Position numbers and translations under genes: made by a program. A model generated the notes under the pieces. The model saw nothing but the letters and a program-made list of their open reading frames with translations. It did not search any database and was not told the DNA's origin. Below, in pieces: positions 11,701 through 54,649 of a stretch of 64,000 nt of DNA; within the stretch, counting starts at the first letter, position 1; each line of letters begins with the position of its first letter. This DNA comes from Raillietiella orientalis (taxonomy: Eukaryota), in the NCBI GenBank assembly GCA_036172245.1, contig JAYWIR010000070.1:310001-374000 (forward strand), in the 5' to 3' direction.

Positions 11701-12992
11701 CAAAAGAAAGAAATGCATCGGCACCTGGCTCTAGCGCCGTAGCAAAGGCGGAGCCAGGAGCGCATGTCCCTACACGCAGGATCTCCCCAGTCGACAGAGC
11801 GCCCACACTGCCCCATCGCCTCGGAGCTGTGTCTCGGAGAGTTGGTGCTCTTTCTCAAAGGACTCCGATGGCGACGACTTCACTTCTTGGAGCTCCCAGG
11901 GGTCCGGAATCGCCACGACGGCGCTCGGCCGTTTCCTCCCTCTACTTCTCTTCTGAGCATCCAAGACTTCGAGATGTGGGAGGGTGCTACAGTCCGCCCC
12001 CTCCCACCTACCCCACTAGCTCGAGTCCGCTTCCCCTCCCCCCCCCCCCATAGCATGCACTCCTGTACCGAATCGGCAAAGGAAGGAGGGTTACGCTCTT
12101 TGTGCCGCCCGCCGCCCCACGCTCAGATCCAAGCTACACTAGAAGCCGGGATCCGTGTAAACCGCGCCTCCTGCCCTGCCGAGAAACCGTCCTCCAAACT
12201 CACTATCAGCTCTACTCTCCCCCACTCGTGGTGTACCAGCTCAGACTCAGGCTGAAGGGCCAGCAAGCCGCAGTAGGGACTTCGGGAGGTGCGAAATCGG
12301 GTGCCTCTCTTCCCGCTTTCCCACACAAGCCCGCAAAGCACTCTCAGGCATCTTCCTTCTCCGCGAAGGACACGAGCAGAAGACGCTCGATGGTTCGCTC
12401 ATGCACCAACTGTCGGAGACACCGTTTGCAAGGGATGTCCAAGTGTTGGACATCATTTCAGAGGATGCGAGGGGGTGAGAAAACTCAGTGACCGAAGGAA
12501 GATCCTTCTTTCCTTCCCGCTGCTGGAGGACATATCCTGAGTGAAGGAAGCGCGAGATAGTGAAGGACGACCCTCGACACGTGGTCATCTGCAGAAGTCA
12601 TGTCAACCTCCATCTGATGATGGAGGAGGAGGGGAAGGAAGGGTGAGCAAGGATTCTCTTGGCCGTTTCACAAGAGACCCCTCCGCCCGCAGTCAAGGCA
12701 GCCTCCTCATCCGAGAGTGCAGAGTCCGACAGACTCTACCGCTTCCTTTTCCGTAGCACATGGCGGAAGAAGGAAACAGGGGAGGCACAAAGAGGGGAGG
12801 GCGATGGAAGGGTGAAAACACATCTCCCCCCTCCACTTCCTTCCATCCACCCCGTTGAACTGCACGCTTTCTAGAGATCAAAGAGCCGGGGAGAGAGGAA
12901 CTCGTGGCATCTCTCTTTCTTCCCCACCCGGTAGTTCCCTCACCACCCTCCTCCCTCCCACCCCCCTCCCTCCAAGATAAAAAGGACGTTAC

Positions 12993-13292
12993 CGGCTGGT
13001 TGGCCATGCATCTCCGCATGGGATCCTGGGTCCTGTAGCCCGGAGAGTACCTTCCATGGAAACAGGGAGAGCTGCCTCCGCCCGCAGGGGCGTGGAGTGG
13101 CGGCGGCGGCGGCGGCGGCCCCTTCCCGTGGACCGCGGCCACGGCCGCCGCCTTGGCGTCGGCGCTGCCACCGTACGCCCCTCCGCCGCCTCCCCCGTTG
13201 TCGGCGTCGCCGTAGCACTCCTGTTTGAGGGACGGTGGTTTGGCGAAGTGCAGCACCTCGCAGTAGGCGTAGTAATCGGTGAGGGACGCCAC
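12993..13292 (-). CDS. acj6: First coding exon of a POU class IV homeobox transcription factor (Acj6/I-POU/Brn3/Unc-86 family), N-terminal region; gene continues leftward beyond the window
   Basis: The translation ends SPCFHGRYSPGYRTQDPMRRCMANQP, which closely resembles the Drosophila Acj6 N-terminus as I recall it (SCFPGRYSPSYRSSEQMRRCMPNPS) and the vertebrate POU4 RRxCLP segment. It is followed by a phase-0 donor CCG|GTAACG (GT at 12992-12991). Codons are strongly C/G-ending, with poly-Gly, Ala-rich and poly-Pro runs. The 5' end is uncertain (GTG at 13292, no ATG). Confidence 0.88.
13098..13118 (-). repeat. (CCG)6CCA trinucleotide repeat encoding Pro7 within the POU4 exon
   Basis: The plus strand reads TGG(CGG)6, in frame with the exon. 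Confidence 0.9.
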
Positions 13293-13880
13293 GGTGGGGT
13301 CTCCCGAGGCGGGGACCCCCTGAGGGCGGCCCTCGGCAAAATTCCTCGGGGGCGGCGAGTGCGGGCCGGACGGTTGCTCCGCCGGACTCCGCTTTTATCC
13401 TTGCTGCCTCGCGGCGCAACCACCAGGGAGCACCCGCGCGCGCGCGCGTCCACGAGGCACCTGTTCCCTGCCCGACGCGTGCAGGGAGATCGCGCTCCTG
13501 CGTCTCGGCAAGGGCGATCCGCCGCCGAGGTACCGCCGCTGGGGGACGGAGTGTGCGCGGCCGGCCGGCACACGCGTGCGCGCGCGCGCGCTCCGGTCGG
13601 ACGCGTGTGCGAGTAGCCGAGGGGGAGAAGGGAAGAGGGGGAGGGGAATGAAGATGGAGGAGGGGGAGAGAGCTGGCTACCGCCGTCACCGCCGCAGCCG
13701 TCGCAGGAGGACAGGGATTGGCTCGCCTGCTCCTGGGCGTCACTTCCGGTCAGGAGTCCTAGGACATTCCCGGAAGTTCTCGCTCTCCCTCTGTTCCCTC
13801 CCCTTCTTCGTAACGGAGACGGCCTCCTCCTCCCCTTCCTCGTTTCTCTGCTCGCGACAGCGCGTGCGTGCGTGCGCCGT
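13293..13880 (-). promoter_or_regulatory. CpG-rich putative promoter / 5' UTR region of acj6
   Basis: Very GC/CpG-rich stretch directly upstream of the coding exon. It contains a CCAAT box on the minus strand (ATTGG 13717-13721), two ETS-type sites (CACTTCCGG 13741-13749, CCGGAAGT 13770-13777), and alternating purine-pyrimidine runs at 13435-13448 and 13568-13591. Confidence 0.5.
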
Positions 13881-16800
13881 GCCTGCTCCCGAAGAAACGC
13901 AGGGAGCAGGGTGAACGGATGCTGCTGCTGCCACGTAGAGACCGACGGGGATGACAGGCAGGTCCATCTGATTCTTCCACCATCCGGAAAGAAGACACTT
14001 CTTCACGTTCTCTTGCCACAACCGCAAACCGCCAGCATCACCGGTCTACTGGCGCAATCCACGCATGCTGCTTCCCTCCTCCTCTTCCTTCCTTCTCCCC
14101 CATGTGCGTGAGCTGCTGCTGTCAGCTGGAGACCAGGGGTGCGACCATCCGACTCCCGCCATTTCCGTGTGGTGAAAACCCTTAGTGGAGGAGGAGGATG
14201 GCAAGGAGCAGGAAAAGGATGCTCATGCTCATCTTTTCCTCTCCACACCAGTTTCTCTTGGTTACGTAACGATGCTAAGCACCCTCGAAGAAGGGAAAGC
14301 CCGTTTGTAGAGCGCTCAACTCCCCAGGACGTCCGCAGGGTCTCGTGAAAGGTCAAAGGAGGATGCAAAGGGAAGAAAGAAATGGAAGGAGGGAAAGCGG
14401 AAGAAGTTCCACAGGGAGCACCGGAAGTGACTCGAACTACTTGCACGACGACGAGCAATGCACAGAAAACGGACTATTTCTTTGCGTCTCTTCGTTCACC
14501 CGCACGCTACTCAGAGATTTAGGGAGTAGGCGTTCCAGGGAAGGGCTTTAGAAGAGGGCTGTTCCGAGCTCGTGAGAAGGTGCCGGGAGAGACTGAAGGA
14601 TCGGATCCTCCCTCCCTACTCCTGGATGCACACACATAGGTTCGGGACTTTCTGTCCGCAGCCTGCGCTACGCGACCGTCACTCGTTCCACCAATCTCTC
14701 GCTCTTCCCCTTCCTACCCTCCTCAGCTCGCGTTGCCTGAGTGCGAGGCTCCCCCTTGCCGGAGGCTGCGCAGCTGGCGGAGGGTACCTCATGCTGCTCT
14801 CCCAAGCGAGCTGCTCTGCCACCTTTGCACGCGCGCTCGCTTCTGGACAAGAGAGACTGCTGTGGGTAGTGCCGTGTACCACTCCGAAACGGATGAGGAG
14901 GGGGAGCTTGAGCAAAATCAGCAACCGGATACGACAACCTGCATTTTCTTGCGGCGCATGCGCTAGGATGTTGAATCTGACGAGTCCCGGTAAGTTCTCC
15001 TTTCGGCCACGACCTGCTCGTGGCGTCCCGTCTCGCCACCAACTCCACCGAATGCGAGTCGGTCCTCCAAGGAGTCGTTCAGGTACCCGCCTTCGAGCCC
15101 CCTAATCCCTCTGCTCGAGGACGCTGCTCACTGGTTGCATCACCCACCCCTGAGATCTGGAGGGAATCCCTCGCTGTCCCTGGTGAACCTGGACCTGGTC
15201 GCTCAGTGAAGCTGCACCCGCGTCTGCAGAGATGGAGACCAGCGGGAACCAAAGGGCACGGGTCCCGCATCTGAGAATGCTGGACACAAAGGGGAGACTT
15301 CCCTTTTCCTTGATGTGCAAAGTGAAAGGGTGCTGCTACGGGAGATACAGAATGGTGGGCGTCCCTGTAGGGCCAAACTCGGAGTCCGGCCATGGAAGTC
15401 CGACAGACCCCACTTGTTCTGCCGGTCTCCTGGAGAGCCTCTCGGCTGATCAGTGTTCTCAGCGCTGCCTGCACTGCGTACGCTTGAGCGCCGGCCTCTT
15501 CAAGGTGTTCTGAGACGAATTTGGGCTTGCGAACGGAACATTGTCTCTTCAGGGAACTTCGGTCTGCATGGGTTCTGGGAGTACTCGAGAAAGAGAGCGA
15601 AGATGGCAGTCCCATTAGTGACAGCACAAGCATGAAGAACAAGCGGAAGACACTCATGGACCCCCGAGAGTAAAATATAGAGATCCATGGAAGACCAGAG
15701 AGATACGGAATGTTGGAACGACAAGGGTCAGGAGGAGCAGGAGAAGCAGCCGTGACCCTCCTAAGTCCTATGATGCGTAGAAGAAGTGGCAGACAATGCA
15801 TTCGCTGACTCACCTCACGGCAATTCAAGCGAAGCTGGAGACAATCTCAAGAGACTAAAGCTGAGGTCTCGACGATATCAAAGGCGGAGCGAGTTCTGGA
15901 GGTAGTCAAGTTTGTTGCCTTTGCTTAGTCTTCCCGGAAAACAGCGGCCGCTTCACCCGCTCCAATACCCCATCTGCAACTCATCTTTTCCTGTTTTCAG
16001 CTTCCGTTCGCTACTCATCACAAAGCTGATGACAGAGCTCTCTCACCGAGATGCTCGCACTTCCCCTCTTTCCCATCTTGCATGGCCGAAGGAACCTCTT
16101 CAGTAGTATCTTCATCGCAATCTCCCCTCCCTATTCTTTTCCATTCTTCCTCATCGTAGTCTCTGTCCTTCCCGGAAGTGGGGTGTCCAGTCGAGTTTCC
16201 GGAACGCTCGATAGAGACCCCTCAGTGATGCGTCCTTGTGGCTTAATCCAGGGGTGGGGCCGCATCTCGATAGATCCAGATTTCGCCTCCGGGAGGCAGC
16301 CTTGGAGGAAGACAAGAGAGACGGAAGGCATAATAAATGGAGTTTAGAGTAGTGTTGGGAGGGCTGATGAAGAGTGCTCCCTACCCGGACGCCGGTTGCA
16401 GGGAAAAGTCTGGAGAGTATCCCGCAAAACTCATGCCATCTTCGTATCCGGTTTGAAAGCGCCAAGACATAGTCCAGGCAAGAGTGCATCCAATTGTCCA
16501 TTGTAAAGACCCCAAGTAGAATGGGTGATTTTCCAGTCTACCCACAGTAGGTATGGAAATGAGGATTTGAAGGAAGCCACCTCGCAGCAACAGCAGCCAC
16601 TGATCACGCCTCTCTTTCCAGTGGTTGGCATTTTCTCACGAGCCAGTCAGAGATGAAAACGGACTGAGAGTGGACGGAATAGTTTCTCAGCGCGATCCTG
16701 GTCTAACTGGAGTTCGAATGCCTCCCATCGGCATGGAGTGCTGCTGAGCTTGATCTTTGGGTTTGTTGCCGTTTTCTTTGCGTGTTAGTCGGAAGTGGAC

Positions 16801-19800
16801 TGCTGCCCGGATGCTCTTAAGGGCGAAGGTCTTGGTTCACAATGATCAACTTTCGTGCCACTCTCGCGAGGGGAGAAGCCCTCCTTCTACCTTCTCACGA
16901 GCATTCTCTTCCATCAACGGCGAGAAAACGAGAGCATCTTGAACAGGAGAAGAGGTAGCTTTCAGTAAGGGCTTACTGACTATCCGATGCGGTTCCGTCG
17001 CGGCTGCCTGTGCAGTCCCATCGGAAAGCACACCTCCTGTCTTCGGTAAGGAAGTGCTTCCTCTGTTCACGGCGTTTTCTGGAAACTCTAGCTGCGAAGC
17101 TCAGCCGTGTCACCCCACATCTGATTCAAAACCTCTCTCTGAGCCTCCTCCTTCGATGGATTCATCAGGCAATGCCTCCCATGAAGGAGATTCCGTGATT
17201 ACTAAATCTCTGTGCGTACTGTCTGATTGCTCGGCATGCTCCTGAAGAGTATCTCACCTCACACATGAGCTTCTCCTCCTTTTTCCTTCTGCTCCTGCTC
17301 CTCGAGATCCAGGAATAAGGATGGTCGATTCTCCTTGCTCCGAAGAGAAGCTCACACCTTCTTTTAGTCTGCCTTTTCCCAGTTTTACTCTTGACAGAGA
17401 AAAATAAGATGACTCTCATCTGGCAAGAATGCATCACATCTCATCCACTCAAAAAGAAAATTCATACAGGTGTCTACTCCGGACTCTGCGAGTCAGCTAC
17501 CGAGATACTCCTCTAATGTGATGTCCTCCGTGTGAGTGCCAAAGGTCAAGGTGTGAGAAACGCTCGAGGGGAACTGGGAAGGAAATGACTGATTCCTACT
17601 GCTTCCTGACCACGTGTTCAGGGCAGGCAAAGACGCGTACTGAAAGCTCTGGAGCTGAGGGACTCTGGAGTTGCAATCAAAGTGATCCTTGATGTTGTGC
17701 AGGCAGTGGCAAAAGAGTAAAACCACCAATTCTCTGCTAAGGGCTTCAGGAAGAACATCGGTCTCTTCGCTGACTCAAAGGCATCCTTTAGTTCGTCTCA
17801 CTCTGTGAAGACGGACTAAAGGACGGTTTTGCCTTCCATAGCAGTCTTCTTCCAGCTAGTCCTAGTCTTTTGATAAGGACGAATAAAATTCTTGCGCAGT
17901 CGCTGCTTCTGAGAATCCTTTAATCGAAAGACCTCCTCGGGTATAGATTGATGTAGTCAAGCTAGAGACATCATGTGGCATCTATACGAACTTCCCTGCA
18001 GTTCAAGCCATCCGGAGAAGGGATCCTAAGGCATCTGTGATCAGACATCGCTAGGAGCCTTTCTCACACAAGAGATGCTAGAGTCTGAGGGCCAGGAAAT
18101 ACCAGAAACTTTAGAGACATCATAGCGTTATCTTTCCAGTTTCCCATCAGTTTTCGAGTCTTCCCTGTGGTCACGTGGGAGGCGAGCTCAACTCACCATG
18201 AAATACTGCAGCGAAGAACGGTGCAGATTAATGGTGGTCTCTTCAAAAGTGCTCCTCTATAGGGCTTGGACGAACCTTTCTCCGGAGAATGATGAACGTT
18301 GTTCAAGTTGCGTCAAAAGGGACGGGATGGAGGTCGTAATGATGCAGATTACCACGTGATTGCTGTGTTCTGACCAAGGAATCGATGGTGCTCGTCATGA
18401 GCGTGCGCGCGGTTTAAATTCACGAGTCGCGTGCTGCCGCTCCGCTGTAATCTAGAGTTGTTGCTACAGCACCTGCTGAGCTGGCAACGACATCGAAGGT
18501 TGACGTGTGATCGTGAGAACCCATAAAGATCATGATGGGCACGAATAAACAATCCAAAGTGTTCCCGAGGCATGAATCTCCGTGGTGCCTTTACCACTGA
18601 ATCCCCCTTCTCTTCCTCTTCTTACTCAGCCAGAAGACAAGCGTTCAAGGACCGAGACGTTCATATTGGGCTCTCAGATATCTTCACTGAAGCAGCGAAA
18701 AGCTCCACGCTTGAGTCTTTCCTCACCGAGAGGTAATTCTGACCCTTCAAGAGAGGAAAATAAGCACTTGCGCACCTTGCTCCTTGGTGTAGGAAGACCA
18801 CTCCTGGGTGTAGCAGCGGTGTACAAAGAGAAATCCTTTTTCTTGCCGGAGGCGACCCCTGAACGCGGAGTTAGGATTTTAAAGACAGTCTTCGATCCGG
18901 CACGCAATCTTTCCTCTCATGATAAGTTCATTCAGTGGAGGTTTTATCCGAACTCCTCAACATTCCAGCTGCTCTCGCTTTGCGCCTCAGGCGAAACGAT
19001 TCCAGCCGACGAACTCTGGATGCCTGTTCTCACAGAAGTGGATTTGCGGGTCTCGAGAGATCTGCAGCCTCCCTCGTCACCTTTCATCTGGAACGGCATC
19101 TGCTTCCCCTTTCGGGAGTCACACCCAGAGGGGTCCCTGCTTGCCCTGAAGGCATGTCGGGCGTGGACACGCTGCAGGTTTGCACAGAACCTGCAGCTCT
19201 TCCTATTCCCCTACCCCGCTTCCTCCCCGTAGATTCGGCTGGGCCCACATGAAGCAAAGCTGCGTTCGCCATAGCATGAGAAAGGTGCGGCGGCTCCAGT
19301 GGCTTGTTTTTTCCTAGGAGAGGACAAGGGTCATTAGTCAGTTCTCTGACGTGCTCATTCGAGGAATGTCTCCAGGAAATCAGTATGGGGAGAGTATTGG
19401 AGAGGAGTGGGTGGAAAACGGAGAGGAGGCGAAACGGGAAGAGTCGAGAGTTTTTTTAGATTTTCGCGGAGGCCCTGATGGCTATATCACTTCGTGCCTG
19501 CTCTTTCCTGAGGGATCTCTTCGACTGGAAGGCCCGGGCCGTAGACTGTCCGGCTCAAGCTCCTCTAGGGCACATCTGATTTGCCCGTCTTTCCTGCGCA
19601 AGTTTCCGCGGTCGCTTCCCGGATTTTTTCATCAATCCTCCCTGTCTCTTTTCCCAGAACAAACGGACTCGCTCGGTGTCCGTTTGTTCCAGAGTAAGAA
19701 GAGGGTAGGGAGAAGGGATGTTCGTAGCTCTAACTTCTTTAAGAGACGCAGGGACTGCTAGCTGCTGGGGAGCGTCCAGCCTAAGAGGAGGGGATGAGAG

Positions 19801-51848: not shown

Positions 51849-52066
51849 TGTACTTCCTGGGACTCCTCGCCTTGGCTCGCTGCAAGGACCTGGAAGTCAT
51901 CACCATCATAGACAAGTACTTCAGCAGACCTAGGCATCCTGCGACGAACGCCGAGTTCTGGAATGGGACCCGGAACTTCATCTGCGAATTTATGAGGAAC
52001 CAGGGGTTGAACGTGACCTTACAAGAATTCGACTCTGAGGTTCCCAAGGAGAATGAACTCCTGCAG
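51849..52066 (+). CDS. M28 peptidase-fold protein, coding exon 2
   Basis: Acceptor ttgtttttcggacAG and donor CAG|GTAGGT. It encodes ...IDKYFSRPRHPATNAEFWNGTRNFICEFMRNQGLNVTLQEF..., the typical M28 N-terminal R-H / helix / GL.V..Q.F pattern. Confidence 0.85.
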
Positions 52067-54406: not shown

Positions 54407-54649
54407 GTGACCGGAGCGAACGTCATCGGGGTGCTGCCTGGCACGGCATGGGGGACAGACCAGGATCGCATCCTGGTCCTGGGAGCGCATTTTGACAGCG
54501 ACTCCACGATCAGTGGGGTGAACGACCTGGGCTCTGGAACCGTTGCTCTCTTGGAACTCTTAGAGCGGCTGAAGAGAAGCCTTAAAGACACCTGCAAGCT
54601 GGTCTACTCCGTCATCTTCGTTGCCTTCGACCTGCAGACGAGAGTCTAC
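54407..54649 (+). CDS. M28 peptidase-fold protein, coding exon 3 (core motifs)
   Basis: Acceptor ctctccgcttccAG, donor TAC|GTAAGT, 243 nt, phase 0-0. It encodes GANVIGVLPG...ILVLGAHFDS...GVNDLGSGTVALLE...VIFVAFDL, the hallmark M28 motifs. Confidence 0.93.

Follow-up and report, generated by a model that had tools for sequence, protein, structure and literature searches.

A POU4/acj6-type first coding exon of Raillietiella orientalis with no ATG ahead of its conserved N-terminal block and a candidate GUG start

The locus and its features

The window analyzed here, that is, the whole stretch of 64,000 nucleotides from Raillietiella orientalis (assembly GCA_036172245.1, contig JAYWIR010000070.1, positions 310,001 to 374,000 of the forward strand), carries on its minus strand a segment running from a GTG to a splice donor whose sequence is most readily interpreted as a first coding exon of the POU4/acj6 type, the name being taken from the N-terminal block alone. 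The features of this exon are collected in Table 1. The initial annotation of the locus had the reading frame closed upstream by a TAA (13397-13395), found no in-frame ATG before the one in the D-P-M-R-R-C-M motif (13019-13017), placed a GTG at 13292 in the context CCCCACC-GTG-GCG, with A at -3 and G at +4, and pointed to the in-frame CAG at 13322-13320 as a candidate splice acceptor. All of this was confirmed on the minus strand, the CAG being in phase 0 and the in-frame ATGs at 13019 and 13007 lying 91 and 95 codons after the GTG, which also has C at -4 and C at +5 and is followed by GCG as the second codon. Absent from that annotation was an out-of-frame ATG at 13057, which is located between the GTG and the in-frame ATGs and opens a frame of 22 codons that reaches a stop beyond the donor.

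The exon lies in a stretch of 64-76% GC in which all three minus-strand frames are open (for 233, 269, and 337 codons), so an open frame is in itself uninformative here. No ATG is found in any minus-strand frame over the 710 bases from 13767 to 13057, and a simple frameshift error therefore cannot rescue an ATG. In the interval 13900-13020, 2 ATGs were seen against 6.0 expected (2000 block shuffles), a borderline depletion that, being not significant (P = 0.053), was dropped as evidence for a leader. Since the conserved block (13064-13020) is upstream of every in-frame ATG, either the exon contains a non-AUG start or an AUG is spliced in.

Elsewhere in the window, the plus strand carries an exon of the peptidase M28 family (Pfam PF04389, E = 3.8e-10), bounded by a canonical acceptor (ttccag/G) and donor (TAC/gtaagt), which was used as the control for coding composition; positions 51849-52066 of the same strand, ending in CAG/gtaggt, are likely a further exon of this gene. 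A search of the 64-kb window against Rfam gave 0 matches.

Table 1. Coordinates and composition of the features discussed in the text (window positions unless stated otherwise; P3 index as defined in the text; a slash marks the exon boundary)
Feature	Positions	Strand	Codons	GC at codon positions 1/2/3	P3 index	Basis or detail
Proposed coding part of the first coding exon, GTG to exon end	12993..13292	-	100			Continuous frame; exon end common to L001
GTG, candidate initiation codon	13290..13292	-				Context gaccccacc-GTG-gcg
In-frame TAA, upstream closure of the frame	13395..13397	-				Inside the AT-rich ATAAAAG element (13398-13392)
Splice donor GT, CCG/GTAACG	12991..12992	-				Position matches the ACG/GTGAGT donor in L001
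Candidate phase 0 splice acceptor, ccgccctcag/GGGG	13320..13322	-				In-frame CAG
Out-of-frame ATG, earliest after the GTG, within the F-H-G codons	13055..13057	-				Frame 2; context gtttcc-ATG-g
Earliest in-frame ATG, in D-P-M-R-R-C-M	13017..13019	-				Weak context gatccc-ATG-c; conserved Met, ATG in L001 too
Second in-frame ATG, conserved Met of the block	13005..13007	-				ATG in L001 too
Alternative in-frame GTG	13140..13142	-				Context gcggcggcc-GTG-gcc; within the stem of a stable GC hairpin
Stretch that begins with the GTG and has, in its frame, a strong coding-type period-3 composition	13197..13292	-	32	0.59/0.38/0.88	0.39	GC by codon position
Stretch between TAA and GTG	13293..13394	-	34	0.74/0.71/0.82	0.10	GC by codon position
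Pro/Gly/Ala-rich coding stretch	13065..13172	-	36	0.86/0.78/0.86	0.04	GC by codon position
Conserved N-terminal block C-F-H-G-R-Y-S-P-G-Y-R-T-Q-D-P-M-R-R-C-M-A-N-Q-P	12993..13064	-				Alignment with L001
K-G-P...L-H-x-P stretch with the (CCG)7 proline run	13067..13124	-				Weakly alignable with L001
Pfam-confirmed peptidase M28 exon, control	54407..54649	+	81	0.59/0.41/0.75	0.25	GC by codon position
Orthologous first exon in L001	1643-1783 of L001	+				Ordinary ATG

Gene identity and the conserved block

The assignment to POU4/acj6 made in the initial annotation is supported by the alignment with a relative and by the targets of guide RNAs in an insect acj6 gene. The relative, L001, is the one confirmed case among 439 pattern matches in a scan of metagenome contigs; it is the sole relative found and a distant one. 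Its exon encodes the peptide M-Y-S-P-D-K-M-M-N-V-K-G-P-L-H-P-T-S-I-A-P-T-T-S, continued by F-P-G-R-Y-S-P-T-F-R-S-Q-D-P-M-R-R-C-M-T-N-P-T and then by the donor GTGAGT. In the alignment of the window with L001, 22 of 44 columns are invariant (tblastx E = 1e-7). Among the 23 aligned codons of the core block, 16 keep the residue, 6 of them as the very same codon and 10 through a synonymous one, and the other 7 encode a different residue; as far as the aligned codons tell, this pattern is the signature of selection on the protein. That the block is translated sequence follows from L001, where the exon that holds it shares the donor position and has an ordinary ATG ahead of the block. In Helicoverpa acj6, two guide-RNA targets are located "within exon 1" in the accessible part of the published text (PMC13718499). 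Translated by hand, these targets read K-M-K-S-G-G and G-R-Y-S-P-T, the latter of which, within the limits of that excerpt, ties the block to exon 1 of acj6.

The window exon thus shares with POU class 4 (acj6/I-POU, Brn3/POU4F1-3, unc-86) an F-x-G-R-Y-S-P...D-P-M-R-R-C-M block that ends at an intron: the GRYSP...MRRCM-type N-terminal block lies in the first coding exon and ends at the conserved intron position. It is unlike the rest of the class, its membership of which is judged from that block, in having no ATG ahead of the block and in carrying a stretch of 76 residues, for which no relative could be detected, where the relatives have about 20-25. A similar block, with Met-rich residues just upstream, is present in Drosophila Acj6, and exon 1 of the vertebrate Brn3 genes closes with a related R-R-x-C motif.

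Searches with known motifs found no POU-specific domain or homeodomain in any frame of the 64-kb window and no POU-IV box in its six-frame translation, so the gene name stands on the first exon. What remains of the gene, POU-IV box, POU domain, and homeodomain included, must be located off the low end of the window, below coordinate 1, with more than 13 kb of intron in between. In L001, at least 5 kb follow the exon and contain neither a POU-IV box nor a POU domain, so a long first intron seems to be shared by the two loci.

In word-indexed protein database searches, the exon peptide gave no match (1691, 27, and 1017 candidates). An exhaustive phmmer search returned a single match (E = 2.3e-5), in which the Gly/Ala/Pro-rich query residues 73-105 are aligned to seven stretches of a 1058-residue protein; this match was taken as compositional. 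Pfam has no family for the exon peptide and no model of the block. The protein atlas contributed only sub-threshold look-alikes (the N-terminal regions of HoxA1 and NR4A1, at 0.86-0.89), and no usable match for the 44-residue block. None of the 27 pattern matches in genome contigs and none of the 19 in viral contigs was confirmed.

The start codon retained in the relative

The ATG of the L001 exon is an ordinary one, with A at -3; it stands 24 codons before the F-P-G-R-Y-S-P block and 13 codons after an in-frame TGA. The initial annotation had described insect Acj6 as having Met residues just before the block, which agrees with this ATG and, as far as the published Helicoverpa excerpt goes, with its K-M-K. 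The position of the L001 ATG inside the exon, together with the Helicoverpa codons placed within exon 1 in that excerpt, argues that the start was ancestrally located in this exon. From this comparison of sequences, the window exon is best read as having lost the ordinary ATG that L001 keeps a few codons upstream of the block.

L001 is without the 76-residue extension proposed for the window exon. No nucleotide similarity was found between the upstream regions of the two loci, and the alignment of the first 10 residues of L001 with the extension is no better than that of shuffles (P = 0.46). The GCG at 13178, within A-Y-G-G-S-A-D-A-K, was considered as the site of the ancestral Met-Tyr start and dropped, the local alignment scoring no higher than shuffles (P = 0.46).

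Where coding-type composition begins

Coding-type composition was followed with the P3 index, in which the mean GC of codon positions 1 and 2 is subtracted from the GC of position 3. Computed over sliding windows of 16 codons, the index is 0.12 at 13328-13281 and then rises through 0.28 and 0.34 to 0.50 at 13292-13245, staying at or above 0.19 down to 13220-13173. The composition of the 32 codons that begin with the GTG matches that of the Pfam-confirmed peptidase M28 exon (Table 1). Of all windows of this size in the 64 kb, 5 of 12,782 attain the P3 value of these codons, and of the GC-matched ones, 0 of 3,896 do so; in a 40-codon version, the tail comprises 0.34% of 12,776 windows; all these tail values are optimistic, since the bounds of the period-3 stretch were picked after looking. 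Among the NNY codons after the GTG, 20 of 21 end in C (local C/(C+T), 0.72), and no tandem repeat is found in 13292-13197. The onset of the period-3 signal and the C-ending NNY codons are in line with the earlier description of protein-like sequence with C/G-ending codons right after the GTG, and this GTG is a near-cognate codon that stands in a favorable context where the coding signal has its 5' edge.

The interval between the TAA and the GTG is nearly flat (Table 1). However, the surely coding Pro/Gly/Ala-rich stretch is flat as well, so the flatness of 13394-13293 is no proof that it is non-coding, and coding sequence may also lie upstream of the GTG at 13292. Protein searches with the 76-residue extension gave no detectable relative.

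The GTG at 13292 as a candidate initiation codon

That translation starts at the GUG at 13292 is the leading reading of the locus, though a tentative one, whose chances fall a little short of even. The evidence that favors it is circumstantial and comes from the sequence: the onset of the period-3 signal, the context of the codon, and the 710 bases without an ATG. A scan of 13800-12990 in which ATG, CTG, GTG, ACG, TTG, and ATH codons were required to have a purine at -3 and G at +4 found seven candidates, none of them between 13686 and 13292 (about 400 bases), and the GTG at 13292 is the only one of the seven with C at -4. According to the accessible part of a study in human cells, non-AUG starts are promoted by C at -4, by a purine at -3, and by G at +4 and are inhibited by G at +5, and GUG reaches ~49% of AUG in the full GCCGCC(A/G)NN motif, described there as mammal-specific (PMC13754004). 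The context rules applied here are therefore mammalian ones, known from that partial text; the GTG at 13292 has C at -7 and also C at -6, which differs from the G of the extended motif (PMC13754004).

The initial annotation had also noted that near-cognate starts in a strong context with GC-rich RNA after them produce N-terminal extensions; here, no specific hairpin was found after the GUG (z = -0.8, with 41 of 200 shuffles folding as well). Of the overall interpretation given there, the gene identity and the Met before the block in relatives are supported, but the argument from GC-rich RNA and the leaky-scanning switch (see below) are not.

If the start is indeed at 13292, the GUG would be read as Met by the initiator tRNA in a near-ideal context, and in the protein the block would be preceded by 76 lineage-specific residues at the N terminus. 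The transcript would then be contiguous across 13292-13400, ribosomes would initiate at the GUG, and the ancestral ATG would have been lost after the upstream in-frame start came into use, perhaps aided by GC-biased substitution in an exon of 70-85% GC. The fuller proposal is that a POU4/acj6 terminal selector of sensory neurons has become wholly GUG-dependent, its ancestral AUG and other N-terminal Met codons having eroded in an extremely GC-rich exon after a segment of the 5' leader was recruited as a new N-terminal domain of 76 residues; this is slightly more doubtful, with a probability below even. Genes that rely solely on a non-AUG start are rare, and overlooked upstream exons are common.

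The ATAAAAG at 13398-13392 on the minus strand is the only AT-rich patch nearby (read by eye), about 100 bases upstream of the GTG. By its motif, it may represent a TATA-like element, as would be in keeping with a short leader free of AUGs. Further upstream on the same strand are other promoter-like motif matches, an ETS-like ACCGGAAGTG at 13741-13750 and a CCAAT box at 13717-13721.

A possible upstream exon as the source of the AUG

The most frequent cause of a first exon that has no ATG is a 5' exon that was overlooked, and an upstream exon or a trans-spliced leader could supply the AUG and join the exon at the phase 0 acceptor at 13320, which would make the GTG an internal valine codon. There are 20 AG sites in 13408-13072; of the 5 that have C at -3, the AG at 13321-13320 alone falls between the TAA and the GTG, and it is in frame besides. 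The pyrimidine fraction of this acceptor (0.60) is bracketed by the values of two acceptors of the peptidase gene that are presumably real (0.80 and 0.50), so it cannot be called too weak, and the period-3 onset at ~13316-13292 fits an exon start at 13319 as well as a translation start at 13292. However, the same exon holds the start in L001 and is called exon 1 in the accessible part of the Helicoverpa report (PMC13718499), and searches of the 50 kb upstream on the minus strand gave no start exon with a likeness to the L001 N terminus or to known POU4 N-terminal motifs. A scan of 13400-40000 for ATGs followed by strong donors (phase 0 donors only, with at least 7 of 9 consensus matches) gave 17 candidates, which are chance-like and none of them convincing; two are bare ATG/GT sites, at 18199 and 39642, as chance predicts. 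All told, an exon or leader joined at 13320 is less probable than the GUG start, its chances being well short of even, but it is a rival to be taken seriously, and should such an exon exist, the finding would reflect no more than the usual limits of the view from a single window.

Two of the sequences encountered upstream may be described separately. The site tatttc-ATG/GTGAGT at 18196-18199 of the minus strand, 4.9 kb upstream, has a perfect donor right after its ATG, and splicing it to 13319 would put a Met in frame; as chance alone predicts ~0.5 such 9-mers in the window, the site is probably nothing. The ATG at 13967, also on the minus strand and in a strong context (aatcag-ATG-g), opens a 75-codon frame that is the same as that of the exon, and ends at the TGA at 13742-13740. 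Its period-3 signal is positive (in parts, 0.25-0.47), and with a transcription start further upstream it could serve as an upstream open reading frame. As a start exon it was rejected, since it ends at the TGA at 13740 and its in-phase donors look poor by eye, and a Pfam TRAPP14_N match within it was dismissed as noise (16.9 bits, with the cutoff at 27).

Other possible starts and the short form

Initiation at another in-frame near-cognate, i.e., the GTG at 13142, the GTG at 13256, or the CTG at 13253, is improbable. The GTG at 13142 does have G at both -3 and +4 and, in a semi-global alignment, lies near the position of the N-terminal Met residues of L001, but the period-3 signal begins about 40-150 bases upstream of these three codons, the GTG at 13142 is buried in the stem of a structure of -55 kcal/mol, and the GTG at 13256 and the CTG at 13253 are without G at +4. 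The GC-rich fold in question (13060-13150 of the minus strand; 91 nt, z = -1.8) pairs the Ala-codon stretch with the (CCG)7 proline run, a tandem repeat at 13099-13119, inside the coding exon. Going by the predicted structure, it could slow scanning or elongating ribosomes.

A further reading is that codon 13292 is in truth ATG and that the GTG stems from an error in the assembly or from a rare allele carried by the individual sequenced. The context CCACC-ATG-GCG would then make a textbook start, only one A-to-G change away from the sequence as it stands. There is, however, no sign of poor base quality and no N in the window, and homopolymer-rich sequence does not break the frame, in which the conserved block stays in phase; an error or rare allele at this codon is very improbable.

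It is also quite improbable that the protein now starts at the AUG at 13019 or 13007, the first in-frame AUGs, with the block untranslated or the gene copy decaying. The block keeps 16 of 23 residues with respect to the distant L001, with 10 synonymous changes, and both AUGs are in weak contexts and face competition from the out-of-frame AUGs at 13057 and 13011. Both of these Met residues are conserved in L001, so they carry no information on start use. After the GUG, ribosomes would meet the AUGs in the order 13057, 13019, 13011, and 13007. Those at 13057 and 13011 are out of frame, the latter with G at -3; those at 13019 and 13007 are in frame, the former having C at both -3 and +4.

Given this order, the suggestion in the initial annotation that leaky scanning past the GUG would create a switch between long and short forms finds no support: the out-of-frame AUG at 13057 comes first, and another, at 13011, lies between the two in-frame AUGs. 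Because both in-frame Met residues are residues of the block conserved in L001, they give no evidence of a second start. A short form from a downstream AUG is possible, and nothing supports it as a regulated product. The functional idea behind such a switch has its likeness in vertebrate Brn-3a and Brn-3b, which have long and short isoforms that differ by the presence of the N-terminal domain; those isoforms, unlike the proposed switch, arise by alternative promoter use or splicing and are not known to arise by start-codon choice.

Comparison with known non-AUG-initiated proteins

Non-AUG initiation is a known mechanism, and NAT1/EIF4G2 is a GUG-initiated protein; the notable point of a GUG start at 13292, if real, is that it would be obligatory in a neuronal identity factor. 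To our knowledge, few developmental identity genes without an AUG-initiated product are known, and a real GUG start would add such a gene, as well as a natural case in which the ancestral start was lost and replaced upstream within a GC-rich exon. Among 42 predicted human N-terminal extensions, 6 begin with GUG in the portion of the catalog that was accessible (PMC3105428). Like such extensions, the window exon has a near-cognate in a strong context upstream of conserved coding sequence and an in-frame stop further upstream. However, in the cataloged cases the downstream AUG mostly gives the main protein, whereas here, in the genomic sequence, the conserved block precedes every in-frame AUG, so that a non-AUG start at the window exon would have to be obligatory. 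The accessible text on HDGF pointed out the absence of intervening out-of-frame AUGs in connection with leaky scanning (PMC3105428), in contrast to the AUG at 13057 that intervenes here.

With a GUG start at 13292, the output of the gene would be set by the start-codon stringency factors eIF1, eIF5, and 5MP, and most of the ribosomes that scan past the GUG would go astray at AUGs that are out of frame. Gene finders that demand an ATG would either truncate the protein at M-R-R-C-M, dropping the block, or invent an upstream exon.
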